From positions 64,001-128,000 of the forward strand of contig CAWHAZ010000004.1 of the NCBI GenBank assembly GCA_963827475.1: a DNA stretch of 64,000 nt, read 5' to 3'. Source of the stretch: an uncultured Chloroflexia bacterium (GTDB lineage Bacteria > Chloroflexota > Limnocylindria > QHBO01). Both the position numbers and the translations under genes were made by a program. Positions 50,739 to 64,000 of the stretch are shown here, piece by piece. Positions within the stretch are counted from its first letter, which is position 1; each line of letters starts with the position of its first letter. The notes under the pieces are model-generated. The model was not told the DNA's origin. It searched no databases and saw only the letters and a program-made list of their open reading frames with translations.

Positions 50739-51098
50739 ATGGACCAAACCGGACTGCTCTACGTCCTGGGTTTCGGCTTCGCCGCGACGACCTTCGTCTT
50801 CGGCACGATCATCTTTTCGTGGCTCGTGTCGCACCGGCGCAAGCAGGCCCAGAAGGGGCTGCCCTACGAGTGCGGGATCGACACCATCGGTGACACCTGG
50901 TCCCGCTTCGGACTGGCGTTCTACCTGTACGCCCTGCTGTTCGTCGCCTTCGACGTCGAGATCATCTTCATCTACCTGTGGGCGATCGTGATCCGCGACA
51001 TCGCGGTCAACGGGATCGTGTTGATGGGCATCTTCCTGGTGGTCCTGATGTATGGCGAGTTCTACGCCTGGAGGAAGGGGGACCTGCAGTGGCGGTAG
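50739..51098 (+). CDS. nuoA: NADH-quinone oxidoreductase subunit A
   Basis: PYECG, FYLYALLFVAFDVE and WRKGDLQW. Confidence 0.95.
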   Translation: MDQTGLLYVLGFGFAATTFVFGTIIFSWLVSHRRKQAQKGLPYECGIDTIGDTWSRFGLAFYLYALLFVAFDVEIIFIYLWAIVIRDIAVNGIVLMGIFLVVLMYGEFYAWRKGDLQWR

Positions 51099-51790
51099 AG
51101 CAGCCGAAGCGCGCCAAAGCGGCCTCGGTCGCCAAGGCGGCCGCCGACCCCAAGGACGCCCCGCCGCCGAGCACCGCGCTCGCCAAGCCGGAGGCCATCG
51201 TCATCCCCGATCCCACGGGCGACGACGACCTCCTGTCCGAGTTCGGGATGGAGGCCCACCCGCGCGGCGGCTTCCACGGCCTGCTGGAGGTCATCCCGAC
51301 CAGGGCGGACTACATCCTCGACCTGATCCGGGCCAACTCCCTGTGGCCGCTCCTGTCGGGGCTGTCGTGCTGCGCCATCGAGATGATGAGCACCGCCACC
51401 CCGATGAACGACATGGACCGCTTCGGGATGTTTCCGATGCGCGCCTCGCCGCGCCAGGCGGACGTCCTGATCGTGGCCGGCACGCTGACGACCAAGATGG
51501 CCGGCCCCCTCGTCCGGCTGTGGGCACAGATGCCCGAGCCGAAGTGGTGCGTGGCGATGGGCACCTGCACGACCAGCGGCGGGCGCTTCAAGCGCTCGTA
51601 CAGCGTGGTCCAGGGCGTGGACCGGGTCATGCCCGTCGACGTCTACGTGCCGGGCTGCCCGCCCCGCCCCGAGGGCCTGATCTACGGAATGATGAAGCTC
51701 CACGAGCTGGTCAAGCAGCGTCGCGGCCAGTGGGACACGTTCGCCGACCGCGGACCGGAGCTCCGTTCCTGGGAAGGAGACGTCCGCTGA
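51089..51790 (+). CDS. nuoB: Complex I subunit B (N2 cluster)
   Basis: LSCCAIEM, SPRQAD, MGTCTTSGG and VPGCPPRPE. Confidence 0.95.
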   Translation: MAVEQPKRAKAASVAKAAADPKDAPPPSTALAKPEAIVIPDPTGDDDLLSEFGMEAHPRGGFHGLLEVIPTRADYILDLIRANSLWPLLSGLSCCAIEMMSTATPMNDMDRFGMFPMRASPRQADVLIVAGTLTTKMAGPLVRLWAQMPEPKWCVAMGTCTTSGGRFKRSYSVVQGVDRVMPVDVYVPGCPPRPEGLIYGMMKLHELVKQRRGQWDTFADRGPELRSWEGDVR

Positions 51791-52365
51791 CCGCTCCCGC
51801 CGCGGCGGGGCCACTCGTCCGGCTGCTCGGTGACAAGCTCGGCGACGCGACGAGCCAGCTGTGGACCGATGAGGACACGGTCGAGGTCCAGGTCCCCGGC
51901 GACAAGATCGTCGAGACCCTTCGGACGCTCCGCGACGACCCCGACTTCGCGTTCTTCTTCCTGGCCGATGCGGCCGCGGTCGACTACGGGGTGGGCGAGC
52001 ACTTCGAGGTCGTCTACCACCTGCACTCCGACAGGCACCCGGTGTGGCTTCGTGTCCGCGTCCCGGTCGACCGCGAGAACCCGCTGACCCCGACCGTCAC
52101 CGGGCTGTGGGAAGGGGCGATGTTCCACGAGCGCGAGATGTACGACATGATGGGCATCGTCTTCCAGGGCAACCGGGACCTGCGCCGGATCTACATGTCG
52201 CCCGACTACCGATCCTTCCCGCAGCGGAAGGATTTCCTGCTCCCCGATGACGCCGCCGACTCCCCGGCTGCCGGCAACATGCCCCTCGAGCGCCCCGAGA
52301 CCTGGGACCTGACCCGGCTCGAGGAAGCGGCCGCCCACCGTGACGAGCCCGGGGGGCCGGTGTGA
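51787..52365 (+). CDS. nuoC: Complex I subunit C, probable CTG start
   Basis: AVDY, FEVVYHL, EREMYDMMGIVF.G, LRRI and PQRKDF; AGGAG lies 7 nt before CTG. Confidence 0.92.
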   Translation: MTAPAAAGPLVRLLGDKLGDATSQLWTDEDTVEVQVPGDKIVETLRTLRDDPDFAFFFLADAAAVDYGVGEHFEVVYHLHSDRHPVWLRVRVPVDRENPLTPTVTGLWEGAMFHEREMYDMMGIVFQGNRDLRRIYMSPDYRSFPQRKDFLLPDDAADSPAAGNMPLERPETWDLTRLEEAAAHRDEPGGPV

Positions 52366-53684
52366 CGACGACGAAGGAACCGCGGGCCCGCAAGCCCCGG
52401 GCCAAGGCTCCGCCGGAGGACGAGGCCGCTCTCCGGGCAGCCGCCGAGGGGCGGATTCCCGACCCGATCGAGCTCGACGCCACGATGACCAGCCCCGCGG
52501 GGACGCGACGCCCGGAGTTCATGGGCTTCGACATCGTCCCGCCGCCCGACCGCCCCCCGCAGACCGAGCGCGAGCGCGAGGTCTACACCCTCGGCGACGG
52601 GGAGATGCTGGTGAACATGGGCCCGCAGCACCCGTCGACCCACGGCGTGATGCGGATCGTGCTCAAGGTCCGCGGCGAGGTCGTCATCGACCTCGACCCG
52701 GTGCTCGGATACCTCCACCGCGGCATCGAGAAGCTGTGCGAGAACGCGACCTACACCACGGTCCTGACCTACGTCGACCCCATGGACTACATGTCGGCGA
52801 TGCACAACGAGCACGCGCCGGCGCTCGCCTTCGAGAAGCTGTACGGGATCAAGGCGCCGCGGCGGGCGGAGTACATCCGGGCCCTGGTGGTGGAGCTGAA
52901 CCGGGTGTTCAGCCACGGCCTGATGATGGGCTTCCTGGCCCTCGACCTCGGCGGCCTGACGCCGATCCTGTACGGGTTCATCAACCGCGACCAGGTCGTG
53001 GACATGCTGTCGGCGATCTCCGGCCAGCGGATGCTGTTCAACTTCTTCCGGGTCGGCGGGGTGAACTTCGACGTGAACGACGAGTTCCTGTCCCGCCTCG
53101 GGAAGTGGCGCGCGGGCGTGCTCGACACGATCGAGATGAACGAGAAGCTGCTCACCGAGAACGAGATCTTCGGGGCCCGGACCAAGAAGATGGGCGTGCT
53201 GACCGGCCAGCAGGCCATCGACCTGGGCGTGTCCGGCCCCAACCTGCGGGCCAGCGGCGTGCCGTTCGACGTCCGCAAGGCCCATCCGTACCCGCCCTAC
53301 CCCGAGCTCGAGTTCGAGGTCATCACCCAGGAAGGCGGCGACACCTACGCGCGGTACATCCAGCGCATCGCGGAGCTGAAGCAGAGCATCCACCTCATCG
53401 ACCAGATCGTCGACCGCATGCCCCACGGCCCGGTCCAGGCCCAGGTGCCGGGCATCATCCGGCCTAGGCCAGGGCGGGCATACGCGGCGGTGGAGTCGCC
53501 CCGGGGGCTGTACAGCGTCTACGCCATCAGCGACGGCGGCCCGAACCCGTATCGGTTCCGCATGCGCGACCCAAGCTTCATCACCCTCCAGGTCATGCCC
53601 AAGGTCATGCCGGGCCGCCTGATCGCCGACACCATGGCGGTGATGGCCAGCCTGGACCCGATCATGGGCGGCGTGGACAAGTAG
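52362..53684 (+). CDS. nuoD: Complex I subunit D
   Basis: NMGPQHPSTHGV, GYLHRGIEK, ELNR..SH, ESPRG and RMRDPSF; no Ni-binding CxxC. Confidence 0.95.
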   Translation: MTTTKEPRARKPRAKAPPEDEAALRAAAEGRIPDPIELDATMTSPAGTRRPEFMGFDIVPPPDRPPQTEREREVYTLGDGEMLVNMGPQHPSTHGVMRIVLKVRGEVVIDLDPVLGYLHRGIEKLCENATYTTVLTYVDPMDYMSAMHNEHAPALAFEKLYGIKAPRRAEYIRALVVELNRVFSHGLMMGFLALDLGGLTPILYGFINRDQVVDMLSAISGQRMLFNFFRVGGVNFDVNDEFLSRLGKWRAGVLDTIEMNEKLLTENEIFGARTKKMGVLTGQQAIDLGVSGPNLRASGVPFDVRKAHPYPPYPELEFEVITQEGGDTYARYIQRIAELKQSIHLIDQIVDRMPHGPVQAQVPGIIRPRPGRAYAAVESPRGLYSVYAISDGGPNPYRFRMRDPSFITLQVMPKVMPGRLIADTMAVMASLDPIMGGVDK

Positions 53685-53702: not shown

Positions 53703-54722
53703 ATGGACCAGGGCATGATCGACCTCATCCTTGGCATCGGCCGCTTCGTGGTCGCCACCACCCTGCTCCTGCTGCTCACGGTGCCGACCGCGTTCATCGT
53801 GATCCAGATGGAGATCAAGATCATCGCCCAGATGCAGCTGCGCTACGGCCCGAACCGGGTCGGGCCGCGGGGCATCTTCCAGAGCACGATCCACGGCTTC
53901 AAGTTCCTGGCCAAGGAGGACCAGACCCCGGATCGGGCGGACGTGCCGACGTTCACGCTGGCGCCGTGGATGGTGTTCATGGCCGCCGCCATGAGCCTGC
54001 TGGTCGTTCCCTTCGCGCCCGGCCTGGTGGCGTTCGACTCGCAGATCGGCGTCATCTACTTCTTCGCCGTCATCGGTCTGTCGGTGGTGGGGCTGCTGAT
54101 CGCCGGCTGGGCCAGCTACAACAAGTACTCGCTGCTCGGCGGGCTGCGGAGCGCGGCCCAGATGGTCAGCTATGAGATCCCGCTGACCCTGTCCATCGTG
54201 GGCGTGGTGGTCCTGACCGGGTCGCTGTCGTTCACCGAGATCGTGGAGTGGCAGCGCGAGCACGGGTGGGCGTTCCTGTGGCAGCTGGTCGGCTTCCCGA
54301 TCTTCCTCATTGCCGCCGCGGCGGAGATCAACCGCGCCCCGTTCGACATGATCGAGGCCGACAGCGAGATCGTCGCCGGCCCGTTCACCGAGTACAGCGG
54401 GATGCGGTTCGGGTTCTTCTTCTTCGCCGAGTACGTGGCCCTGTTCATCATGAGCGCCATCCTGGTCACCCTGTTCCTGGGCGGCTACCTCGCGCCGTGG
54501 CCGTTCCCCGCCACCCTCGACGGCTTCGTCGGAACCCTGTACGGCCTGTTCTGGTTCTTCGTGAAGACGTACTTCTTCGTCTTCGTCGCGGTCTGGGTGC
54601 GGGCCACCCTGCCGCGGGTCCGGGTTGACCAGCTGATGGGCGCGTCGTGGAAGGTGCTGCTCCCGCTGGCCCTCGTCAACCTGTTCCTCACGGCCATCGT
54701 CGTTCTCGCCCTCAACCTGTAA
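53703..54722 (+). CDS. nuoH: Complex I subunit H
   Basis: RYGPNRVGP, KYSLLGGLRSAAQMVSYE, EINRAPFD and EYSGMRF. Confidence 0.95.
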   Translation: MDQGMIDLILGIGRFVVATTLLLLLTVPTAFIVIQMEIKIIAQMQLRYGPNRVGPRGIFQSTIHGFKFLAKEDQTPDRADVPTFTLAPWMVFMAAAMSLLVVPFAPGLVAFDSQIGVIYFFAVIGLSVVGLLIAGWASYNKYSLLGGLRSAAQMVSYEIPLTLSIVGVVVLTGSLSFTEIVEWQREHGWAFLWQLVGFPIFLIAAAAEINRAPFDMIEADSEIVAGPFTEYSGMRFGFFFFAEYVALFIMSAILVTLFLGGYLAPWPFPATLDGFVGTLYGLFWFFVKTYFFVFVAVWVRATLPRVRVDQLMGASWKVLLPLALVNLFLTAIVVLALNL

Positions 54723-54732
54723 GGTTCGACCC

Positions 54733-55575
54733 ATGGCGATACCGGGCTCGGGCATGCTCACCGGCATGGGGGTGACCCTGCGGAACCTGTTCCGGCCCAA
54801 GGTGACGCTGCAGTACCCCGAGGAGCGGCCGCACATCCCCGACCGCTGGCGCGGGCGCCTGGACCTCATCTACGACCCGTTCGGCGAGCACAAATGCGAG
54901 GTCTGCTTCCAGTGCGCCCAGGTCTGCCCGGTCGAGGCCATCGACATGAGCGGGTTCGACAGCGAGGGCAACCGGATCCGATACGGCCTGCCGGAGATCT
55001 ACGACGAGCGGAAGGACCCCAATGCCTACCGTCGGGCCGGCCTGCCCGCTCGCCCGGAGCGCAACGCGGCCCGCTGGCAGGAGGACGTGGACAACGCCTG
55101 GGTCGACTCGGTGATCGACGGCTTCGGCGGCCGGCCCGAGTCGCTGGTCGCGATCTTCGGCGCGGTCCAGGCGAAGTACGGATACCTCCCCGAGCCGGCG
55201 TTGCGCCGGATCAGCGACCGGATGACGATCCACTGGGCCCAGGTCTTCGGCGCCGCCGGCCTGGGCGGGTTCCGGCTCCTGCCCGCCGAGGGCCACCTCG
55301 TGACCGTCTGCTCGTGCGCCGCCTGCCGCTTCGCCGGCGGGGACAGGCTCCTCGCCGCGCTCGAGGAGGAGCTCGGCATCCGGGCGGGCGAGGTGACCGA
55401 TGACGGGTCGTTCACCCTGGAGACCGATGCGAACGTGGGGTCGGGCGCGATCGCGCCGGCGGTCCGCATCGACACCCTGGTCTACGGGCCGCTCTCGGTG
55501 GACGAGGCGCGTCACCTGATCTACGCCCGCCGGGCCGAGGCAAGCCCAGCCGCCTCCGCCCCGGCCCGGGCCTGA
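54733..55575 (+). CDS. Fusion of NuoI N-terminal half and degenerate NuoE
   Basis: VTLQYPEE..RGR..CEVCFQCAQVCP (a single NuoI motif), then VQAKYGYLP..VCSCAAC..TDDGSFTL..AP (NuoE). Confidence 0.85.
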   Translation: MAIPGSGMLTGMGVTLRNLFRPKVTLQYPEERPHIPDRWRGRLDLIYDPFGEHKCEVCFQCAQVCPVEAIDMSGFDSEGNRIRYGLPEIYDERKDPNAYRRAGLPARPERNAARWQEDVDNAWVDSVIDGFGGRPESLVAIFGAVQAKYGYLPEPALRRISDRMTIHWAQVFGAAGLGGFRLLPAEGHLVTVCSCAACRFAGGDRLLAALEEELGIRAGEVTDDGSFTLETDANVGSGAIAPAVRIDTLVYGPLSVDEARHLIYARRAEASPAASAPARA

Positions 55576-56939
55576 TGGCGGTCACCCTCTCCCCCCAGAT
55601 CCGGATCCTGGACGGGGGGCAGCAACGCCTCCTGAAGGGCATCGGGACCCTGGATCCCGGGTCGCTCGCCGCGTATCGCAAGGCCGGTGGCTACAAGGGT
55701 CTGACCCGGGCGGTGACCCAGCGGTCGCCGGACGAGGTCATCGGCGAGATGGCAGCCGCGCGTCTGCGGGGACGGGGTGGCGCCGGCTTCCCGGTCGCGG
55801 ACAAGTGGCGAGCCGCCCGATCGGCACCCGGCGACCGCAAGATCGTGGTCGCCAACCTGATGGGCGCCGACCCCACGTCCCTCGGCGACCGGACGCTGGC
55901 CGAGGGCAACCCGCATCTCGTCCTCGAGGGGGCGCTGATCGCCGCTGCCGCCGTCGGCGCCAGCGAGGCGATTCTCGCCGTCCGCCGCGACTGGACGCTG
56001 GCCATCGAGCGCCTGCGCGCCGCGGTGGCGGACGCGGAAGCGGCCCACCTGGCCGGCTACCTCATCCTCGGCACGGACGTCTCGGTATCGGTATCGGTCT
56101 GGGAAGGCTCCGGTGCCTACGTCGCCGGGGAGGAGACGGCCCTCATCCACGCCCTCCAGGGTGACCGCGGCATGCCGCTCATCCGGCCGCCCTACCCGGC
56201 CGAGCGCGGCCTGTGGGACGTGCCAACGGTCATCCACAACGCCGAGACGCTCGCCCACGTGGCCTGGATCGCCGGCCACTCGGCTGCGGAGTTCACGAAG
56301 GCCGGGACCGAGGCGGCGCCGGGCACCAAGCTGGTGACCGTCGCGGGTGCGGTGACGACGCCGGGCGTGGCCGAGGTGGCGCTGGGAACATCGGTCGAGA
56401 AGGTCATCAGCCTGGCTGGAGGCTCGACGGGGACGGTCAAGGCCGCGTTCATCGGCGGCCCCGGGGCTGGCGCCCTCGCCGCCGACGAGCTGTCCGCCAC
56501 CGCCTACGCGTACGACGAGCTGGCGGAGGTCGGCGGCCACATCGGCTCGGGAACGGTGCTGGTCACCGACGCCGGCACCTGCATGGTGGCCACCGCCCGC
56601 TTCCTGCTCGACTTCTCGGCCCGCGAGGCGTGCGGCAAGGCCGTTCCCTGCCGCATCGGCACCCGCCGCCTGGTAGAGGCCCTCGACCGGATCCTGGCCG
56701 CGACCCCACGCCCCAATGACCTGGTCCTGCTCCGCGAGCTGTCGGCGAAGATCGCGGACACCGCCCTGTGCCGCCTGGAATCGCTCGCTCCGCGGCCGAT
56801 GCTCACGACCCTCGATCGGTTCGCCGACGAGTACCGCGCCCACGCCGAACGCGGGGTGTGCCTCGCCGGCTCGTGCTCGACCGATGCGGTCCTGCCGCTG
56901 CTGACCCCGCTGGCCGAAGCCGTAGGATTGGACCGATGA
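55575..56939 (+). CDS. nuoF: NuoF/HydB-like flavoprotein subunit with degenerate motifs
   Basis: LRGRGGAGFP, GAYVAGEETAL, PPYPA, NAETL, GTKL, CGKAVPCR and C-terminal H..CLAGSC. Confidence 0.82.
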   Translation: MAVTLSPQIRILDGGQQRLLKGIGTLDPGSLAAYRKAGGYKGLTRAVTQRSPDEVIGEMAAARLRGRGGAGFPVADKWRAARSAPGDRKIVVANLMGADPTSLGDRTLAEGNPHLVLEGALIAAAAVGASEAILAVRRDWTLAIERLRAAVADAEAAHLAGYLILGTDVSVSVSVWEGSGAYVAGEETALIHALQGDRGMPLIRPPYPAERGLWDVPTVIHNAETLAHVAWIAGHSAAEFTKAGTEAAPGTKLVTVAGAVTTPGVAEVALGTSVEKVISLAGGSTGTVKAAFIGGPGAGALAADELSATAYAYDELAEVGGHIGSGTVLVTDAGTCMVATARFLLDFSAREACGKAVPCRIGTRRLVEALDRILAATPRPNDLVLLRELSAKIADTALCRLESLAPRPMLTTLDRFADEYRAHAERGVCLAGSCSTDAVLPLLTPLAEAVGLDR

Positions 56940-59320
56940 CCTTCGTCGGCAACGGCAATGGCAAGGGCAACGGCAAGGGCGCCGAGCACATGGAGGACTA
57001 CGCGCCGATCTGGCCGGTCGTCCCCGGCACCCGACCGATCACGGTCACGATCAACGGCCGCCAGGTCCAGGCCGAGGAGGGGCAGACCATCCTCCAGGCC
57101 TGCCGGGTGTTGGACATCGAGATCCCGACCCTGTGCTACGAGCCGAAGCTCTCGCCCTACGGGGCCTGCCGCATCTGCGTGGTCGAGGTCGAGGGCGAGG
57201 AGAACACGCCGATCTCGTGCGGGACGAAGGTCGCGGACGGGATGGTCATCACCACCCACTCGGAGCGGGTCATCGAAAACCGCCGCCTGGTGCTGGAGCT
57301 GATCTTCTCGGACCACGACGCGTACTGCCTGCCGCCGTGCCAGTTCAAGTGCCCGACCCGGGTCGACATCCCCGGCTACCTGAAGGCCAACGCGGAGGGC
57401 AACTGGGAAGAGGCGACCCGGATCCTGAAGCGGTCCCTGCCCTTCCCGGCCATCCTCGGCCGGGTCTGCCCCGCCCCGTGCGAGACCCACTGCCGGCGCG
57501 AGGAGGTCGACATCGCGATCGCCATCCGCGACTCGCATCGCTACTGCGCCGACCGCGTGCTCGAAGTCGACGCGCCAGCCCCCCTGCCGTGGCCGAAGGA
57601 GCCGCCCACCGGGCGGCGGGTCGCGGTGGTGGGCTCCGGACCGGCCGGGATGACGGTCGCGTACTACCTCCAGCTCCGCGGCCACCAGTGCGACGTGTTC
57701 GAGGCCGACCCGGAGCAGGGCGGCATGCTGCGCTACGGAATTCCCGAGTACCGCCTGCCGAAGGCGTGGATGGACCGCGAGCTGAACCACGTCTGGGAGC
57801 TGGGCGCCACGTTCCGGCCGAACATGCGGCTCGGGCGCGACTTCCACCTCGCGGACCTGCTCGACCAGGGCTACGACGCGGTGTTCGTGGGCACGGGCTG
57901 CTACAAGTCGAACGAGCTGGGCATCCCCAACGAGTTCGCGGACGGGACGGTCAACGCCCTCGAGAACCTCTACAACAGCACCCGCGGCGTCCCCGTCCCG
58001 CAGCTGAAGGGGGCGCGAGTGGTGGTCATCGGCGGTGGGTTCACCGCCATCGACTGCACACGGACCTCGCTCCGCCAGGGCGCGGAGGCGGTCACCATCG
58101 TCTATCGCCGCGACCTGAAGGACATGCCGTCGCAGGACGAGGTCCACGAGGCGATCGAAGAGGGCGCGACGGTCATCTTCCAGGCCGCACCGGTCCGCAT
58201 CGTGACCGACGCCAAGGGTCGGGTGACCGGGGTCGAGTTCCAGAAGATGCACCTCGGCGAGCCCGACGAGAAGGGTCGCCGCCGGCCGGAGCCGATGCCC
58301 GGCACCGAGTTCATCGTCGAGTGCGACACCGTGCTGGGGGCCATCGGCCAGGGTCCGGAGCTGAGCTGGGTCGACCTCGAGCCGGACGAGATCCGCGGCG
58401 GGCTGGAGGTCAGCCGCCAGGGTCGCCTGGTCGCCGACCCGAACACCTTCCGCACCGGCGTCCCTCAGGTTTTTGCCGCCGGCGACGTGAACCTCGGCGC
58501 CACGACCGTGGTCGAGGCCATCGGTGACGGCCGCCGCGCCTCGTATGCGATGGACTACTGGCTCCGTGGCCACGACCTCGATGACCCGCAGGTCCGCCGC
58601 ATCGTGTCCGAGCCCCAGCCCTCGTTCCTGACCATCGTGCCCTTCACCGACGACGTGAAGGAGCCCCAGGCGGTGATGGGCAAGAAGGGGCCGGAGGAGC
58701 GGAGCGACAACTTCGGGGAGTACGAGTACGGCTACACCCACGACCAGGCGATGGGCGAGGCGGCCCGCTGCCTGCAGTGCACGTGCGAGGCGATCGGCCA
58801 CTGCGACCTCCGCGAGGCGGCGATCGAGTACGAGACCACGCTGAACATGGCGATCGACGAGCGGTCGATCCAGGACAACCCGTACGTCGGCATCAACCAC
58901 GGCTACGGCCGGGACGAGACCCACTCGTTCATCCTCCGCGACTACAGCCGGTGCATCGACTGCGGCCGCTGCGCCCAGGTGTGCAAGGACATCGTGGGCG
59001 CCGGCTGCTACGACTTCATCGGCAAGGGCTTCGACTCATTGGTCACCACCGCGGACTTCGTCTCGCTGAACGAGACGCCGTGCGTGTCGTGCGGTCGGTG
59101 CGCGGAGACGTGCCCGGTCGGGGCCCTCATGCCGCGGCCGCGGATCCTGGAGACCTATCAGCTCGACGTCAGCCGCTGCATCTTCTGCGGCATCTGCGCC
59201 GACGCCTGCCCGTACGACGCGCTGCGCTGCGGCCCCGAGTTCGAGTTCAGCGAGTACCAGCGCGATCTGCCGATGCTCGACATCCTCGAGATGTCCGACC
59301 GGGAGCGGCCCACCCGCTAG
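56936..59320 (+). CDS. NuoG-N/GltD-type FAD and Fe-S oxidoreductase fused to the NuoI C-terminal half
   Basis: IPTLC..GACRIC..SC (2Fe-2S); GRVCPAPCETHC, VGSGPAG, GGGFTAID, VYRR and AAGD (GltD); two ferredoxin motifs; then YQLDVSRCIFCGICADACPYDAL..EFE (NuoI). Confidence 0.88.
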   Translation: MTFVGNGNGKGNGKGAEHMEDYAPIWPVVPGTRPITVTINGRQVQAEEGQTILQACRVLDIEIPTLCYEPKLSPYGACRICVVEVEGEENTPISCGTKVADGMVITTHSERVIENRRLVLELIFSDHDAYCLPPCQFKCPTRVDIPGYLKANAEGNWEEATRILKRSLPFPAILGRVCPAPCETHCRREEVDIAIAIRDSHRYCADRVLEVDAPAPLPWPKEPPTGRRVAVVGSGPAGMTVAYYLQLRGHQCDVFEADPEQGGMLRYGIPEYRLPKAWMDRELNHVWELGATFRPNMRLGRDFHLADLLDQGYDAVFVGTGCYKSNELGIPNEFADGTVNALENLYNSTRGVPVPQLKGARVVVIGGGFTAIDCTRTSLRQGAEAVTIVYRRDLKDMPSQDEVHEAIEEGATVIFQAAPVRIVTDAKGRVTGVEFQKMHLGEPDEKGRRRPEPMPGTEFIVECDTVLGAIGQGPELSWVDLEPDEIRGGLEVSRQGRLVADPNTFRTGVPQVFAAGDVNLGATTVVEAIGDGRRASYAMDYWLRGHDLDDPQVRRIVSEPQPSFLTIVPFTDDVKEPQAVMGKKGPEERSDNFGEYEYGYTHDQAMGEAARCLQCTCEAIGHCDLREAAIEYETTLNMAIDERSIQDNPYVGINHGYGRDETHSFILRDYSRCIDCGRCAQVCKDIVGAGCYDFIGKGFDSLVTTADFVSLNETPCVSCGRCAETCPVGALMPRPRILETYQLDVSRCIFCGICADACPYDALRCGPEFEFSEYQRDLPMLDILEMSDRERPTR

Positions 59321-59766
59321 CCCGCGTCCGCGGCGCTCCGGGACGGTGTCGCGCGGTTGAACCCGAAGCGGAGGAGCCGGAACAGCAGGTAGCCGATCAG
59401 CGCGCCAACGACGTTCAGGAGGACGTCGTCCACGTCGGTCATCCGGTTCGGGATCCGCAGCTGGGCGAGCTCGATCGCGACGCTGAGCACGACCGCCACC
59501 AGCAGGACTCGGGCCCACCCGTTCATCGCCGGGAACGCGATCGGTCCGAGCAGACCGACCGGGAGCAGGAGCAGGAGGTTCCCGATCAGCTGGCCGGCCC
59601 AGAACGGGGACTCGAGGTTGTCGAGGTAGACCTGGATCGTCCGGAACAGGACGAAGTTGTCATCCACGATGAAGCCAGGCGGCGGTTCCACGGGCTGCAG
59701 GGTCATGAGCAGTCCAAGGGCCAACCACGCCGCCAGGAGCACGCCGGCGGTCACACGGGCAGTCAT
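59317..59766 (-). CDS. VanZ family membrane protein
   Basis: NFVLFRTI, GNLLLLLPVG, IELAQ and TDVDDVLLNVVG. Confidence 0.85.
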   Translation of the reverse strand: MTARVTAGVLLAAWLALGLLMTLQPVEPPPGFIVDDNFVLFRTIQVYLDNLESPFWAGQLIGNLLLLLPVGLLGPIAFPAMNGWARVLLVAVVLSVAIELAQLRIPNRMTDVDDVLLNVVGALIGYLLFRLLRFGFNRATPSRSAADAG

Positions 59767-59837
59767 CGGCCGCCCAGTCTGTCAGCCCCGGCGGTTTTCT
59801 GCCGATGCGGGGCGCCGGGCGGTATCCTCGGCGGCGC

Positions 59838-60254
59838 ATGGCCGATCTCCCCCAGCAGCCGATCGAGATGATCCTGCTCCGCCAGCTGGCGGAGCACCTC
59901 GGCATCCCGGTGTGGGTCATCGACAGCGCCGGCGACCTGGTGTTCTTCAACGAGGCCGCCGAGCCCACGCTCGGGTTGCGGGCAGATGACGTGGACCAGA
60001 TGCCGTACGAGGCGTGGACGACCGGGTTCGCGCCACGGGACCTCGCCGGCAACCCGGTTCCCGGTGAGGCGCTGCCGCCGATCAAGGCCCTGCGCGAGGG
60101 AAAGCCGCAGCACGACTCGCTCGAGATCACCGGCGCCGACGGCGTGGCCCGCCAGATCGTGATCACCGCCTTCCCGTTGACCGGCGGGCACGGGGACATC
60201 ATGGGGTCGGTCACGATGTTCTGGGAGTCGAACGGGGAGTCGGAACAGGCGTGA
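59838..60254 (+). CDS. Stand-alone PAS domain protein
   Basis: PVWVIDSAGDLVFFNEAAEPTLG and C-terminal GDIMGSVTMF strand. Confidence 0.8.
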   Translation: MADLPQQPIEMILLRQLAEHLGIPVWVIDSAGDLVFFNEAAEPTLGLRADDVDQMPYEAWTTGFAPRDLAGNPVPGEALPPIKALREGKPQHDSLEITGADGVARQIVITAFPLTGGHGDIMGSVTMFWESNGESEQA

Positions 60255-61084
60255 TCGTCCGGCTGTGGGGCACGCGAGGCTCGGTCGCGAGCGCCGGTCC
60301 CCAGACGGCCCGCTACGGCGGCAACACGGCCTGCGTCGAGGTCCGGGGCGACGACGGCTGCCTGGTCGTCCTCGACGCCGGCACCGGCATCCAGCGCCTG
60401 GGCAACGAGCTGGAGGACGACATCCATCGCATCGACATCCTGCTCACCCACCTCCACATGGACCACATCCAGGGCCTGGGTTTCTTCGCCCCGATCTTCC
60501 GCAAGGGCTGCGAGATCCACGTCTGGGGTCCCCCATCGCCGACGCTCCACCTCCGCGCCCGGGTCACCCGCTACATGTCGCCCCCGTTGTTCCCGATCCG
60601 CCTGCGCGACCTGCGGGCCAACTTCGAGTTCCATGACGCCCCGCAGGACCCGTTCACCATCGGTTCGTTGACCATCAAGGCCGACGAGGTCATCCACCCC
60701 GGCGCCACCCTCGGCTATCGGGTCAGCGAGAACGGCCGGTCACTCACCTATCTCAGCGACCACGAGCCGGCGCTGGCCGCCAACAACGGCGAGCCCGGCC
60801 CCGGCTGGATCAGCGGCCTGGCCCTTGCCCACGACGCGGACGTGCTCATCCACGATGCGCAGTACACCCAGTCCGAACGCGAGGAGCGGCTCGGCTGGGG
60901 GCACTCCTCGGTCCCGGAGGCCATCGACTTCGCCCGCACCGCGGCCGCCAAACAGCTCGTCCTGTTCCACCACGACCCCGCGCGGACCGACCACCAGATG
61001 GACCTTCTCCTTGCTGAGGCGGAGGCTCTCGCGGACGGAATGCCGGTGACGGCCGCGCGCGAGGGTGACGTGCTCGTCCTTTAG
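60251..61084 (+). CDS. MBL-fold metallohydrolase (phosphodiesterase/RNase Z-like)
   Basis: WGTRGS, YGGNTAC, LDAGTG, THLHMDHIQG, SDHE, WGHS and FHHDP. Confidence 0.88.
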   Translation: MIVRLWGTRGSVASAGPQTARYGGNTACVEVRGDDGCLVVLDAGTGIQRLGNELEDDIHRIDILLTHLHMDHIQGLGFFAPIFRKGCEIHVWGPPSPTLHLRARVTRYMSPPLFPIRLRDLRANFEFHDAPQDPFTIGSLTIKADEVIHPGATLGYRVSENGRSLTYLSDHEPALAANNGEPGPGWISGLALAHDADVLIHDAQYTQSEREERLGWGHSSVPEAIDFARTAAAKQLVLFHHDPARTDHQMDLLLAEAEALADGMPVTAAREGDVLVL

Positions 61085-61113
61085 AATCGGGCTCGGCCTC
61101 CGGAGCGAGGCCC

Positions 61114-61656
61114 GTGAGCGCTCAGCCCGAACGGAGAGTCTCGGCTCTGGACATCTCGATCGTCCTCTTCGTGGTGCTCGCCGTCGGCGTCCTCGGCGGT
61201 GGCCTGGCGGCCGTGCTCCTGCGGAACGTCATTCATTCCGCGGTGGCCATGATGTTCTGCTTCGGCGCGCTCGCCGGGACCTACGCGCTGCTTGGCGCAC
61301 CGATCGTGGCGGCGGCACAGGTCCTGATCTACCTCGGCGCGATCAGCGTCCTGATCCTGTTCGCGATCATGCTCACCCAGGCTGGCGACGCGAACCTGCC
61401 CGCCCCATTCCAGCGCCAGGCGCCGGTGGCGGCGCTGGTCGCGCTCGGGATCGTGTTCCTTGTCGGCTGGGCCATCGTCAGCACCGACTGGCCGAACGCC
61501 ACCGTCGTGATCGCGGTTGACCTCAACAAGCTGGCGACCGCCATCTTCACCGACTACGCCCTGCCCTTCGAGATCGTGGCCTTCCTGCTGCTGGCCGCGA
61601 TCATCGGCGCCATCTACCTGGCCCGACGGCCCGAAGAAGACGAGCGGGCGAACTGA
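61114..61656 (+). CDS. nuoJ: Complex I subunit J
   Basis: NVIHSA, QVLIYLGAISVLILFAIML and YALPFEI. Confidence 0.93.
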   Translation: MSAQPERRVSALDISIVLFVVLAVGVLGGGLAAVLLRNVIHSAVAMMFCFGALAGTYALLGAPIVAAAQVLIYLGAISVLILFAIMLTQAGDANLPAPFQRQAPVAALVALGIVFLVGWAIVSTDWPNATVVIAVDLNKLATAIFTDYALPFEIVAFLLLAAIIGAIYLARRPEEDERAN

Positions 61657-61659
61657 CCG

Positions 61660-61968
61660 ATGGGCCTGCCCGCGTACCTGTTCCTCTCCCTGCTCCTGTT
61701 CGGGATCGGAGCCTTTGGGTTCCTCGCCCGGCGCAACGCGATCATGATGCTGATCTGCATCGAGTTGATGCTGAACGCGGTGAACCTCGCCCTCGTCGCG
61801 TTCAACGCGTTCGACTACGGCGCGACGAATGACGCGGGCGCGGTCTTCTCCCTCCTGATCATGGCCGTCGCCGCGGCCGAGGCGACGGTGGGGCTGGCGC
61901 TGGTCATCGCCATCATCCGGACCCGTCAGACCCCCGAGGTCGACGAGTACTCCGACCTCAAGGAGTGA
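61660..61968 (+). CDS. nuoK: Complex I subunit K
   Basis: RRNAIMMLICIELMLNAVN and AAAEATVGLA. Confidence 0.95.
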   Translation: MGLPAYLFLSLLLFGIGAFGFLARRNAIMMLICIELMLNAVNLALVAFNAFDYGATNDAGAVFSLLIMAVAAAEATVGLALVIAIIRTRQTPEVDEYSDLKE

Positions 61969-61972
61969 TGCC

Positions 61973-64000
61973 CTGACACCGGAGCAGCTCATCCCACTCA
62001 TCCCGGCCCTGCCGCTCGTCGGCTTCCTGTTCGCGGTCCTCCTCGGGTCGCGTCTCGACCGCATTCCCGAGCACGGTGACCACGGGGATGGGCACGGAGC
62101 GGGGGCCGGCCACGACACCGGCGGAGACCCGCACGCGTCGCACGACGAGGCGGTGGACGAGTCCGCGTTCCGCACGATCCCGACCGAGGAGGAACAGCGC
62201 GAGACCTCGCCCCACCGGGGCCACGCCGACGACCTGGCCAACGCCAACGGGGCAGATGGGGTCATCCCGGACGAGCTGAACGACGGACGGGGCCAGCCCG
62301 GCCACGTCTCCCCGGGCGGGCCGCGACCGGTCTACCGCTCGTGGTGGGTCCCCGTGGCCCTTGTCGCGCTCATGTGGGCCGCGGCCATGGTCGTGTTCGG
62401 ATCGGTCATCTTCGACGGTGCCGAGTACCGGGTCACCGTCTACGAGTGGATCGTGTCCGGCGACTTCCGGGTCGAGATCACGTTCTTCGTCGACGCGCTC
62501 ACCGCGGTCCTGCTCCTGGTCGTCAGCACGGTCGGCCTCCTCGTCCACGTCTACTCCATCGGCTACATGGACGGCGACCGGAGCGTGTGGCGCTTCTTCG
62601 CCTACCTGAACCTGTTCATGTTCAGCATGCTGCTGCTGATCCTGGCCGACAATTTCCTGCTGCTGTACGTCGGCTGGGAAGCGGTGGGCCTGTGCTCGTA
62701 CCTGCTCATCGGCTACTGGTACAAGAAGCCCTCGGCCGCCGGGGCCGCCAAGAAGGCGTTCATCGTCAACCGGGTTGGCGACTTCGGATTCGGGCTCGGC
62801 GTGATCCTGATCTGGACGTTGCTCGGCACCCTCGCGTTCGAGGAGGTGTTCGCCGGTGTCGGCGGGCTGGAGGAGTGGCAGGTCACGCTCATCGCGCTGC
62901 TCCTGTTCGCGGGCGCGGTCGGCAAGTCCGCCCAGTTCCCGCTCCACGTCTGGCTTCCCGACGCGATGGAGGGGCCGACCCCGGTCAGCGCCCTGATCCA
63001 CGCCGCGACGATGGTCAACGCCGGCGTCTACCTGGTGGCGCGCTCGAACCCGATCTTCGCCGAGGCCCCGACCGCCATGGCGGTGGTCGCGGCCATCGGT
63101 GTCTTCACCGCCGTCCTGGCCGCGGCCATCGCGCTGACTCAGAACGACATCAAGAAGGTCCTCGCCTACTCGACCGTGAGCCAGCTGGCATACATGTTCT
63201 TCGGGCTGGGCATCGGGGCGTGGGTGGCGGCCATCTTCCACCTGCTGGCCCATGGCTTCTTCAAGGGCCTGCTGTTCATGGCGTCGGGATCGGTCATCCA
63301 TGGCGCCGGCGGCGAGCAGGACATGCAGCTCATGGGCGGGCTGCGGGAAAAGATGCGCTGGACCTACGTGACCATGGTCATCGGGTCGCTGGCCCTGGCC
63401 GGCATCCCGATCTTTGCCGGGTTCTTCAGCAAGGACGAGATCCTGTCGGAGGCGTTCCTGCGCGGCTACGGGGTCTACTGGCTGATCGGGATCGTCGTCG
63501 CGTTCATGACCGCGTTCTACACGTTCCGGATGATCTACCTCACCTTCCACCGATCCTGGCGCGGCCCGGCCGAGGCGTGGCACCACGTCCACGAGAGCGG
63601 ATGGACGATGGTCGTCCCGCTGGTCATCCTGGCCGTGCCCACCGCCCTGGCCGGCCTCCTGCTCGGCATTCCGCCCGAGAGTGGGGCCATCCACACCTGG
63701 CTCGAGGAGGTCTTCGCCGGAGCCGAGGCACTGGGAACGGGCATCCTCCCCGGCTCTATCGCCGCCGAGGCGCTCGAGCATGGTGAAGCCCACGCATTCG
63801 AGCTCTTCGGGCTCGGCGGCCTGCTGCTCCTCGTCGGCGCGGGCATGGGGGTCGGCGGCATCCTGCTCGCCCGCCGCTGGTACGTCCAGAACCCGGAGGC
63901 ACCGGTCCGCTTCGTCGAGCGCATCCCGTTCGGCCTGGGGCCGGGCATGTACCGCGCCAGCGTGAACAAGTACTACTTCGACGACCTGTACCAGCTCCTG
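61973..64000 (+). CDS. nuoL: Complex I subunit L, runs off the window; CTG start or an indel after ATG at 61968
   Basis: Frame missing from the ORF track, translated by hand: HVYSIGYM, GWEAVGLCSYLLIG, KAFIVNRVGD, KSAQFPLHVWLPDAMEGPTPVSALIHAATMV. Confidence 0.93.
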   Translation, partial: MTPEQLIPLIPALPLVGFLFAVLLGSRLDRIPEHGDHGDGHGAGAGHDTGGDPHASHDEAVDESAFRTIPTEEEQRETSPHRGHADDLANANGADGVIPDELNDGRGQPGHVSPGGPRPVYRSWWVPVALVALMWAAAMVVFGSVIFDGAEYRVTVYEWIVSGDFRVEITFFVDALTAVLLLVVSTVGLLVHVYSIGYMDGDRSVWRFFAYLNLFMFSMLLLILADNFLLLYVGWEAVGLCSYLLIGYWYKKPSAAGAAKKAFIVNRVGDFGFGLGVILIWTLLGTLAFEEVFAGVGGLEEWQVTLIALLLFAGAVGKSAQFPLHVWLPDAMEGPTPVSALIHAATMVNAGVYLVARSNPIFAEAPTAMAVVAAIGVFTAVLAAAIALTQNDIKKVLAYSTVSQLAYMFFGLGIGAWVAAIFHLLAHGFFKGLLFMASGSVIHGAGGEQDMQLMGGLREKMRWTYVTMVIGSLALAGIPIFAGFFSKDEILSEAFLRGYGVYWLIGIVVAFMTAFYTFRMIYLTFHRSWRGPAEAWHHVHESGWTMVVPLVILAVPTALAGLLLGIPPESGAIHTWLEEVFAGAEALGTGILPGSIAAEALEHGEAHAFELFGLGGLLLLVGAGMGVGGILLARRWYVQNPEAPVRFVERIPFGLGPGMYRASVNKYYFDDLYQLL

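Follow-up and report, generated by a model that had tools for sequence, protein, structure and literature searches.

The 64,000-nucleotide stretch considered here (the window; positions 64,001 to 128,000 of contig CAWHAZ010000004.1, assembly GCA_963827475.1) belongs to an uncultured Chloroflexia bacterium of the class Limnocylindria (formerly Ellin6529) and carries a respiratory complex I operon in which the subunit NuoI is divided between two proteins. Its N-terminal half opens one protein and its C-terminal half closes another, and each half is fused in frame to a component of a three-gene electron-input module related to soluble transhydrogenases. It is considered likely, on the count and conservation of the cluster ligands, that the two halves would combine into a single NuoI-type domain with two clusters, by which an input module for reduced nicotinamide adenine dinucleotide phosphate (NADPH) at flavin adenine dinucleotide (FAD) and for its unphosphorylated counterpart (NADH) at flavin mononucleotide (FMN) would be wired to NuoB and quinone. 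The architecture is not peculiar to this genome, being found across the whole class and in a second phylum.

Two Halves of NuoI on Two Proteins

A sequence-only reading of the window had placed the two halves of NuoI on different proteins, and both the positions and the content that it gave were borne out by the NuoI profile TIGR01971 (121 positions), to which residues 11-83 of a 280-residue protein (the I-E fusion) align at positions 1-72 and residues 736-777 of a 794-residue protein at positions 71-112 (Table 1). The fragments are complementary and abutting, as that reading required: on NuoI of M. smegmatis (8e9g_I) the N-terminal half covers residues 8-88 and the C-terminal half residues 84-127, and on NuoI of E. 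coli (7awt_I) the two proteins cover residues 23-84 and 90-128, respectively. The cut point falls between the two half-repeats of the ferredoxin fold, and each half brings one CxxCxxCxxxCP motif, at residues 55-66 of the I-E fusion (nucleotides (nt) 54895-54930), where it is the only one, and at residues 748-759 of the 794-residue protein (nt 59177-59212). For comparison of the C-terminal half with solved chains, the last 67 residues of the latter protein were used; NuoI chains gave the best single stretches, and polyferredoxins led by summed score because a lone motif matches each of their repeats.

The three open reading frames (ORFs) that follow nuoH are joined by overlapping stop and start codons. 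In the first, the NuoI part is continued in frame by a PF01257 match at residues 125-263; the second encodes a NuoF-like protein; and the third combines a [2Fe-2S] domain, a GltD-type FAD/NADPH domain set inside a NuoG-type domain with a His-ligated cluster, a 2x[4Fe-4S] ferredoxin-like domain and, finally, the NuoI half. When the hidden Markov models of NuoI and NuoE were run, as had been suggested, the NuoI halves proved complementary, whereas the NuoE model reached only 74.5 bits against a cut-off of 141. The absence of an intact nuoI, noted earlier for the window, extends to the genome: a six-frame TIGR01971 search of the whole genome, which is 90% complete, gave no match above the cut-off of 113.05 bits, and thus no single polypeptide matching the entire profile at that level, the two best matches being the halves themselves (60.4 bits for profile positions 1-73 and 47.6 bits for 71-112, in ORFs 4.2 kb apart).

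Origin of the Inserted Module

The split had been explained by a three-gene electron-input cassette inserted into nuoI and fused to both of its halves. The insertion and the fusions stand, but the genes resemble those of NfnC, NfnB and NfnA and not ordinary nuoE, nuoF and nuoG. The best solved relatives of all three proteins are the soluble NfnABC/Stn transhydrogenases of the Bfu family (9bov, 8oh5 and 9n5u), so that BfuA, BfuB and BfuC each have a homolog here. Residues 33-758 of the 794-residue protein align to residues 2-699 of Caldicellulosiruptor NfnA (9bov_A, E 9e-169), followed by the Sporomusa Stn large subunit (8oh5_C) and an archaeal NfnA (9n5u_A); the NuoF-like protein is matched by NfnB at E 1.1e-113 and by Thermus Nqo1 at E 2e-73; and the NuoE-like domain matches NfnC (9bov_C, E 1.1e-23). 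By homology, the cassette is descended from an NfnABC/Stn (Bfu)-type module and not from a native nuoEFG.

Conservation of individual residues was assessed in alignments of 37 sequences per fusion protein from four families of the class, with identities down to 30% and 48%. The flavoprotein part of the 794-residue protein holds an HxxxCxxxCxxxCP motif, a GxGxxG motif (residues 233-238) and a GxGxxA motif (residues 366-371), with G233, G235, G238, G366, G367 and G368 invariant. According to the available text of PMC7483475, GxGxxG is the FAD motif and GxGxxA the NADP(H) motif of GltD/NfnL-type flavoproteins, and a GltD set inside a NuoG-like protein is marked by HxxxCxxxCxxxCP and CxxCxC...C. 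Both marker motifs are invariant (H127, C131, C135, C139 and P140; C612, C615, C617 and C623), the second having five residues before its last cysteine against four as written in that source. A preference for NADPH is accordingly a prediction from these motifs.

Parts of the ancestral proteins are missing. The molybdopterin-type C-terminal domain of NfnA is gone, and the NuoI C-terminal half stands at its expected start. The NuoF-like protein aligns only to residues 105-527 of the 584-residue 9bov_B, and neither the N-terminal nor the C-terminal domain of BfuB was detected by Pfam, the lost parts being the thioredoxin-like domain at the N-terminus and the ferredoxin-type domain at the C-terminus.

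Conservation Across Limnocylindria

Full-length relatives of the I-E fusion were found in 37 of 41 related genomes (a count that includes two flagged as unpublished), and the gene order nuoA-B-C-D-H-[I'E]-F-[G'I]-...-nuoJKL is kept in 80 of 80 close loci, as far as the contigs reach. In the more distant families f3 and f4 (the families of the class are here designated f1 to f5), the full operon was present at all eight loci, with identities of 39-44% (I-E protein) and 57-60% (large protein). Exactly one cluster motif, within the first 110 residues, occurs in 93 of 93 I-E fusion proteins, and a NuoI-type motif lies at the C-terminus of the large protein at all 63 loci where the latter is complete in one ORF (two of these proteins have a longer tail, so that the 140-residue counting window held just this motif). 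Every genome examined retains the NuoF-like gene at full length. When 401 evenly sampled Chloroflexota genomes were queried with the I-E fusion at E <= 1e-25, f1 (16/16), f3 (23/23) and f4 (4/4) were recovered, and the single match outside the class was confined to the NuoE part. All 121 class genomes of at least 85% completeness (five flagged as unpublished) match TIGR01971; three exceed the cut-off and the others give half matches. The intact NuoI of these three (142-145 bits for intact copies in the class) is additional to the split form, and no relative was seen with an intact nuoI in its place, which would have spoken against the earlier reading.

In public protein data, the tail region of the large protein is matched at E <= 1e-10 by 1016 clusters formed at 90% identity. 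The pieces are named 'NADH:ubiquinone oxidoreductase subunit E', 'formate dehydrogenase major subunit', 'FAD-dependent oxidoreductase' or by compound COG names, none of which flags a split NuoI. Because annotation pipelines misname the pieces in this way, nuoI, and often nuoG, will be reported as missing in metabolic reconstructions of these groups. Loci that are 75-87% identical to the fusion gene of the window were also found in metagenome-assembled genomes (MAGs) titled Pleomorphomonadaceae, Steroidobacteraceae or Zixiibacteriota (L024, L048, L058, L064 and L085); these are probably mis-binned or mislabelled Limnocylindria contigs.

Cofactor Ligands Kept and Lost

The four cysteines and the proline of each NuoI motif are invariant in the 37 sequences (C55, C58, C61, C65 and P66 of the I-E fusion; C748, C751, C754, C758 and P759 of the 794-residue protein), as are C673, C676, C679, C683, C716, C719, C722 and C726 of the ferredoxin-like domain and, in general, every ligand of the 2Fe-2S, GltD-side and ferredoxin-like clusters of the 794-residue protein, whose other cysteine motifs are all assigned to clusters of their own. 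Elsewhere ligands have been lost. Alignment with canonical NuoE showed that in f1 and f3 the NuoE-type [2Fe-2S] site retains its first cysteine pair but not its second, leaving the domain short of its four ligands, and the thioredoxin-like part is wholly missing in f2, f5 and two members of f3. The second cysteine of the NuoF-type 4Fe-4S motif is replaced by alanine in f1 and by threonine in most of f3, and is kept in f2 and one f3 member. Since other ligands in the same polypeptides have decayed and serve as an internal control, the NuoI cysteines are under selection.

In the available part of PMC11829005, the bifurcation site of Bfu enzymes is composed of FMN, the [4Fe-4S] cluster B1 and the [2Fe-2S] cluster C1. 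In the window's lineage this site is not fully liganded, with three cysteines at B1 and two ligands missing at C1, which we read as a dismantling of the ancestral site.

Two further residue patterns were observed. Cluster A7 of NfnA is ligated by three cysteines and a lysine, conserved in all Bfu members as the available text of PMC11829005 has it; in split-type proteins the lysine position is taken by an invariant histidine (H201 of the 794-residue protein, nt 57536-57538), found in 37/37 Limnocylindria sequences and in 48/48 pattern-matched Thermoleophilia ORFs. The C-terminus of the NuoF-like protein carries a CxxGxC motif (residues 429-434, nt 56859-56876), which is present in 12 of 13 aligned split-type sequences (the window, f1, f3 and f2), absent from one f3 member (L103), and represented by its first cysteine only in canonical NuoF of the same class.

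A Two-Locus Form in Families f2 and f5

At the f2 and f5 loci (L107, L108, L110, L111, L112 and L113-L116), a five-gene cluster nuoB-D-[I'E]-F-[G'I], with the NuoE part cut down to its N-terminal helices, is surrounded by unrelated flanks. The only NuoH of these genomes lies in a second operon, nuoA-C-H-J-K-L-M-N, which is without exactly B, D and I. The two loci are exactly complementary, which links both the split NuoI and its Nfn-type module in function with NuoB, NuoD and the membrane arm. Two other identities were considered for the f2 cluster and rejected: a soluble NiFe hydrogenase, since its NuoD-like protein has no NiFe cysteines, and a soluble enzyme, in view of the complementary operon in the same genome. 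One f2 genome (G039) has, in addition, an intact NuoI within a canonical 14-gene operon (L109).

The Same Operon in Thermoleophilia

A search of 1.84 billion representative proteins returned 24 matches at E <= 1e-30 and several more distant full-length fusions, one of which led to 78 loci, by their titles mostly from uncultured Thermoleophilia (Actinomycetota). Two further distant full-length fusions, used as queries, led to no fusion-type locus in species-representative genomes. In the 70 of the 78 loci that were analysed (L117-L186), the same gene order and both fusions were found. The head of the I-E fusion has one motif at 66 of the 70, the best match at the other four covering the NuoE part only, and a NuoI-type motif is present at the tail in 43 of the 55 loci with a large-protein match, the other 12 being cut or frame-broken. 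The F protein of these organisms is a full BfuB, with the thioredoxin-like N-domain, a complete cluster motif and the C-terminal 2x4Fe-4S domain, and their NuoE domain scores above the NuoE cut-off. In three of four Thermoleophilia genomes examined, an intact NuoI occurs in a canonical complex I operon beside the split form. At one locus of an Actinomycetota MAG (L173:8922-14177), the F-like and G-like genes form a single ORF of 1752 amino acids, either a further natural fusion or an assembly error.

Relationships were examined in quick trees with few canonical rows and no outgroup, with branch support given by the Shimodaira-Hasegawa-like approximate likelihood ratio test (SH-aLRT). The large proteins of the two phyla form two clean clades (SH-aLRT 100); in the NuoH tree, three canonical copies are set off from a group that unites the split types of both phyla (SH-aLRT 97); and in the NuoD tree, the Thermoleophilia split type groups with Limnocylindria and away from the canonical copies of Thermoleophilia (SH-aLRT 100), the lone canonical Limnocylindria copy being placed unsurely on a long branch. 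We infer that the split-type operon may be one lineage that moved as a unit between phyla. Both Limnocylindria and Thermoleophilia have been reported from soils and fresh waters, and the sample labels of the present records (record titles and run labels) name soil, rhizosphere, mine drainage and lake.

Proposed Electron Path and Alternative Explanations

In the 2x[4Fe-4S] ferredoxin fold, each cluster is bound by three cysteines of one motif and one of the other. Each NuoI half brings four cysteines and, as this ligation applies, the halves must pair to bind clusters N6a and N6b; no other source of a partner motif was found in either protein or in the genome. The halves would thereby fold together into one 2x[4Fe-4S] domain, each cluster held by three cysteines from one chain and one from the other, and this domain would be seated on NuoB, NuoD and NuoH as usual.

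As far as the available text of PMC11829005 goes, electrons in NfnABC pass along FAD-A7-A6-A3-A2-A1 to B1-FMN-C1, and the A2-A4-A5 branch of Csac NfnA is a dead-end remnant of a formate-dehydrogenase ancestor. The split-NuoI domain would prolong this branch. The NuoI half lies about 21 residues after the last Cys-Pro of the ferredoxin-like branch and would replace the stretch following the ferredoxin-like domain of NfnA, which we take to hold A5. Electrons from NADPH would then travel through FAD, A7, A6, A3, A2, A4, N6a/N6b and N2 to quinone, and those from NADH probably through FMN, B1, A1 and A2 to the same exit, and the proton pump would be driven by this flow to N2 in NuoB and on to quinone. 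At the exit point of the ferredoxin-like branch, the B/C lobe would be anchored by the I-E fusion, and the two covalent fusions together would clamp the foreign input module onto the core. In the window's lineage, with its bifurcation site apparently dismantled, the enzyme is predicted to be a plain, possibly dual-donor NAD(P)H:quinone oxidoreductase. In canonical complex I, electrons leave for N6a through the His-ligated cluster N5; because the exit would here be the ferredoxin-like domain, the link to the core is likely to be topologically different and independently evolved.

It is possible, although unlikely, that all electrons come from NADPH at the GltD-type FAD and that the FMN protein and the NuoE-like domain persist as structural relics. 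Such an enzyme would be in keeping with the alanine or threonine in the NuoF-type motif of f1 and most of f3, with the NuoE-type site short of two of its four cysteines and the thioredoxin-like part gone in f2, f5 and some f3, and with the invariance of all ligands of the FAD-side chain. However, the FMN-binding loop and the GEETAL-type NADH-site motif, both of them NuoF motifs, are kept in all families, the F gene has nowhere been shortened in the genomes examined, and f2 and one f3 member retain all cysteines of the cluster. A 3Fe-4S or 4Fe-4S cluster can still be bound by three cysteines.

A second alternative concerns the direction of the reaction, which might mainly be a reverse or coupled transhydrogenation (quinol and proton-motive force driving the reduction of NADP+ or NAD+) or a bifurcation or confurcation with ferredoxin like that of the Nfn ancestor. 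This is improbable for the window's lineage, where the FMN, B1 and C1 site is short of ligands and BfuB is without its ferredoxin-side domain, where the split form is the sole complex I in 118 of 121 class genomes, which fits an ordinary respiratory role, and where a PntB transhydrogenase gene is present in the genome. The arguments in its favor are the derivation of the module from a bifurcating transhydrogenase (PMC11829005, in the available text) and, in Thermoleophilia, the full BfuB, the high-scoring NuoE domain and the coexistence with canonical complex I noted above, which suggests a special role there.

That the NuoI halves are cluster-less vestiges, with the Nfn-like proteins acting as a separate soluble enzyme and the membrane complex fed otherwise, is very improbable. 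Neither half alone attains the NuoI family cut-off, and soluble NfnABC enzymes do exist; yet the eight cysteines and two prolines are invariant even in sequences of only 30% identity, whereas ligands elsewhere in these chains were lost, the N-terminal half keeps the NuoI-specific N-terminal segment (profile positions 1-72) beyond a mere ferredoxin motif, no other NuoI is available to link NuoB with a donor, and the f2 module travels with nuoB and nuoD, precisely the genes that, together with nuoI, the membrane operon lacks.

An artefact, whether a chimeric contig or frameshifts imitating fusions, is hardly credible: the source is a MAG, and frame breaks do occur in these genes at four long-read relatives (L029, L068, L089 and L091), but the same in-frame fusions recur in 80/80 close loci, which stem from independent MAGs of many different studies and assemblers, some with long-read contigs of 1-2 Mb, as well as in each of the 8 f3/f4 loci retrieved and in a second phylum, so that the chimeric assembly which the earlier reading had kept in mind is not supported, and the many protein clusters matching the tail region and the sequence found in four public runs point the same way. 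Part of the stretch is present in twenty public runs. Contigs from two rhizosphere RNA libraries and two DNA runs cover 30 of 30 bins of the region, which for the RNA libraries hints at expression, and the read contigs X2 (54955-55753) and X1 (54983-55166) run from the linker into the NuoE domain.

Several points weigh against the proposed wiring of a dual input module through a shared NuoI domain. Mapping of the junctions, which had been proposed as a check, was carried through with the public-run contigs as regards coverage of all 30 bins in four runs, but among the contigs listed, the longest ones, none bridges nt 54893-54955 or 59100-59237; moreover, contigs of RNA libraries can contain DNA. 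The NuoE domain is without its canonical cluster, and the FMN branch may be impaired because the NuoF-type cluster has three cysteines only. The shared-cluster domain is predicted from ligand count and invariance, and NADPH specificity from the GxGxxA motif and homology. As PntB is present, NADPH oxidation by complex I is not forced. Finally, with a MAG that is 90% complete, the absence of nuoI is uncertain for this single genome.

The Remainder of the Operon and the Genome

The nuo operon occupies the plus strand at 50.7-64 kb of the window (Table 1), and the contig continues beyond it with the rest of nuoL, then nuoM and nuoN, three antiporter-type genes in total. All 11 core subunits (A, B, C, D, H, I, J, K, L, M and N) are thus encoded, NuoI solely as two halves. 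The true start of nuoC is placed near 51790 because its domain sits in the last third of the ORF. NuoB keeps the ligands of cluster N2 (a tandem CC, one more C and a CP), and NuoD, whose alignment shows no NiFe cysteine motifs, is of the non-NiFe type. The genome (1.92 Mb in 7 contigs) has one NuoH and one NuoF-like gene, and the operon is the organism's only complex I within the limit of a 90% complete MAG. The idea that the complex is the only link of the cell between NADH and NADPH was discarded on account of the PntB gene.

Table 1. Genes and domains of the split-NuoI operon and its surroundings (coordinates of the window)
Feature	Position	Strand	Evidence
I-E fusion, 280 amino acids: NuoI N-terminal half, linker of about 40 residues, NuoE/NfnC-like domain	54733..55575	+	Pfam, TIGR01971
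NuoI N-terminal half, residues 1 to about 86	54733..54990	+	TIGR01971 profile 1-72, E 3.6e-16
NuoE/NfnC-like thioredoxin-fold domain, without the second cysteine pair of the [2Fe-2S] site	55105..55521	+	PF01257 E 1.2e-23; 9bov_C E 1.1e-23
NuoF/NfnB-like FMN/NAD(H) subunit, 454 amino acids	55575..56939	+	Pfam; 9bov_B residues 105-527, E 1.1e-113
NfnA/StnC-like protein, 794 amino acids, C-terminus is the NuoI C-terminal half	56936..59320	+	Pfam; 9bov_A residues 2-699, E 9e-169
GltD/NfnL-type flavoprotein part, residues 127-546	57314..58573	+	PF14691, PF07992
2x[4Fe-4S] ferredoxin-like domain, residues 666-731	58931..59128	+	PF22117, PF12838
NuoI C-terminal half, residues 736-794 of the 794-residue protein	59141..59320	+	TIGR01971 profile 71-112, E 3.6e-15
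nuoA	50739..51098	+	PF00507 E 9.8e-32
ORF holding nuoB, true start probably further in	50978..51790	+	PF01058 E 7.4e-28; translation
ORF holding nuoC, domain at residues 279-398 (last third)	51052..52365	+	PF00329 E 8.3e-36
nuoD, NuoD type	52362..53684	+	PF00346 E 1.7e-81; alignment
nuoH	53703..54722	+	PF00146 E 4.2e-111
VanZ-like gene, not part of the enzyme, between the 794-residue fusion gene and nuoJ	59317..59766	-	PF04892 E 1.8e-23
PAS-domain gene	59805..60254	+	PF00989
Metallo-beta-lactamase-fold gene, same genus-level insert as the PAS gene	60251..61084	+	PF12706 E 1.7e-21
nuoJ	61114..61656	+	PF00499 E 8.6e-34
nuoK	61660..61968	+	PF00420 E 1.2e-25
nuoL, extends past the window end	62153..64000	+	PF00361 and PF00662

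Between the 794-residue gene and nuoJ, the operon is broken at 59317-61084 by the VanZ-like gene on the minus strand and the PAS and metallo-beta-lactamase genes. The latter two occur at this position in six of the 80 close loci, which are the nearest ones (L020, L021, L024, L025, L028 and L029), and other genera have 0.03-3.3 kb of differing sequence there. A scan of 59200-61200 for promoters and terminators gave no promoter-like site and one terminator-like site, which does not exceed the expectation from shuffled sequences. The N-terminus of NuoD is extended by about 75 residues with a high content of Lys, Arg, Pro and Ala (52362-52600), which the canonical copy does not have, and the ORF holding nuoB begins with a long Ala/Pro/Lys-rich stretch (51098-51250).

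Significance and Comparison with Known Systems

Few enzymes of bioenergetics have been studied as thoroughly as complex I, whose 14-subunit bacterial core is regarded as fixed. The present operon encodes one of the iron-sulfur subunits of this core in two natural pieces, and the two clusters of that subunit would lie between the two polypeptides; in addition, the input module has been exchanged for that of a soluble NADPH transhydrogenase, which would directly show how complex I can gain an input module, a long-discussed step in its evolution. The product is a candidate proton-pumping NADPH:quinone oxidoreductase. In open-access papers and preprints, no account was found of a NuoI in two pieces or of a nuo operon with an Nfn-type module. 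With considerable reserve, it might be proposed that in this operon a soluble diaphorase was joined to the complex I core for a second time and independently, with a ferredoxin-fold subunit cut at its pseudo-symmetry point and two clusters shared by two chains, and that the Thermoleophilia form, which is less reduced and retains the entire Nfn bifurcation apparatus, could be a proton-pumping complex I coupling NADPH, NAD(H) and ferredoxin to quinone by bifurcation or confurcation.

Compared with canonical NuoI (Nqo9/TYKY/NDUFS8), the NuoI-specific N-terminal segment, both CxxCxxCxxxCP motifs and the position after nuoH are shared, whereas the subunit is here made of two polypeptides, each fused to an input-module subunit. 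With the canonical NuoEFG module the present input module has in common its role, consisting of an NADH/FMN entry and an iron-sulfur chain to NuoI, and the folds of NuoE, NuoF and the N-terminal part of NuoG. However, the present module is closer to Nfn (for the F protein, 1e-113 with NfnB against 2e-73 with Thermus Nqo1), has an extra FAD/NADPH domain and a covalent joint to NuoI, has no C-terminal domain of NuoG, and probably delivers electrons via a ferredoxin-like domain and not via a His-ligated cluster.

NfnABC/StnABC (9bov, 8oh5 and 9n5u) are the best solved relatives, with the same GltD-in-NuoG layout, both marker motifs and the order C-B-A. Unlike in these enzymes, the molybdopterin-like domain of NfnA is replaced by the NuoI C-terminal half and NfnC is fused to the N-terminal half, C1 lacks two ligands and B1 one, the N- and C-terminal domains of BfuB are absent, the lysine of A7 is a histidine, and the module lies inside the operon of a membrane complex I.

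Other relatives of complex I also receive their electrons from a different input, such as FpoF in the case of Fpo and ferredoxin in that of NDH-1. According to the available text of PMC4758237, the place of NuoI in mbx-like operons is taken by a GltD-type flavoprotein. In all these systems, as here, a complex I core takes an input other than NuoEFG, and a GltD-type flavoprotein can take part; in the split-NuoI operon, in contrast, NuoI is retained in divided form and a complete three-subunit Nfn-type module is spliced in. The Thermoleophilia operon is the counterpart with the same gene order and fusions, differing in that it keeps a full BfuB and a high-scoring NuoE and is usually accompanied by a canonical complex I.

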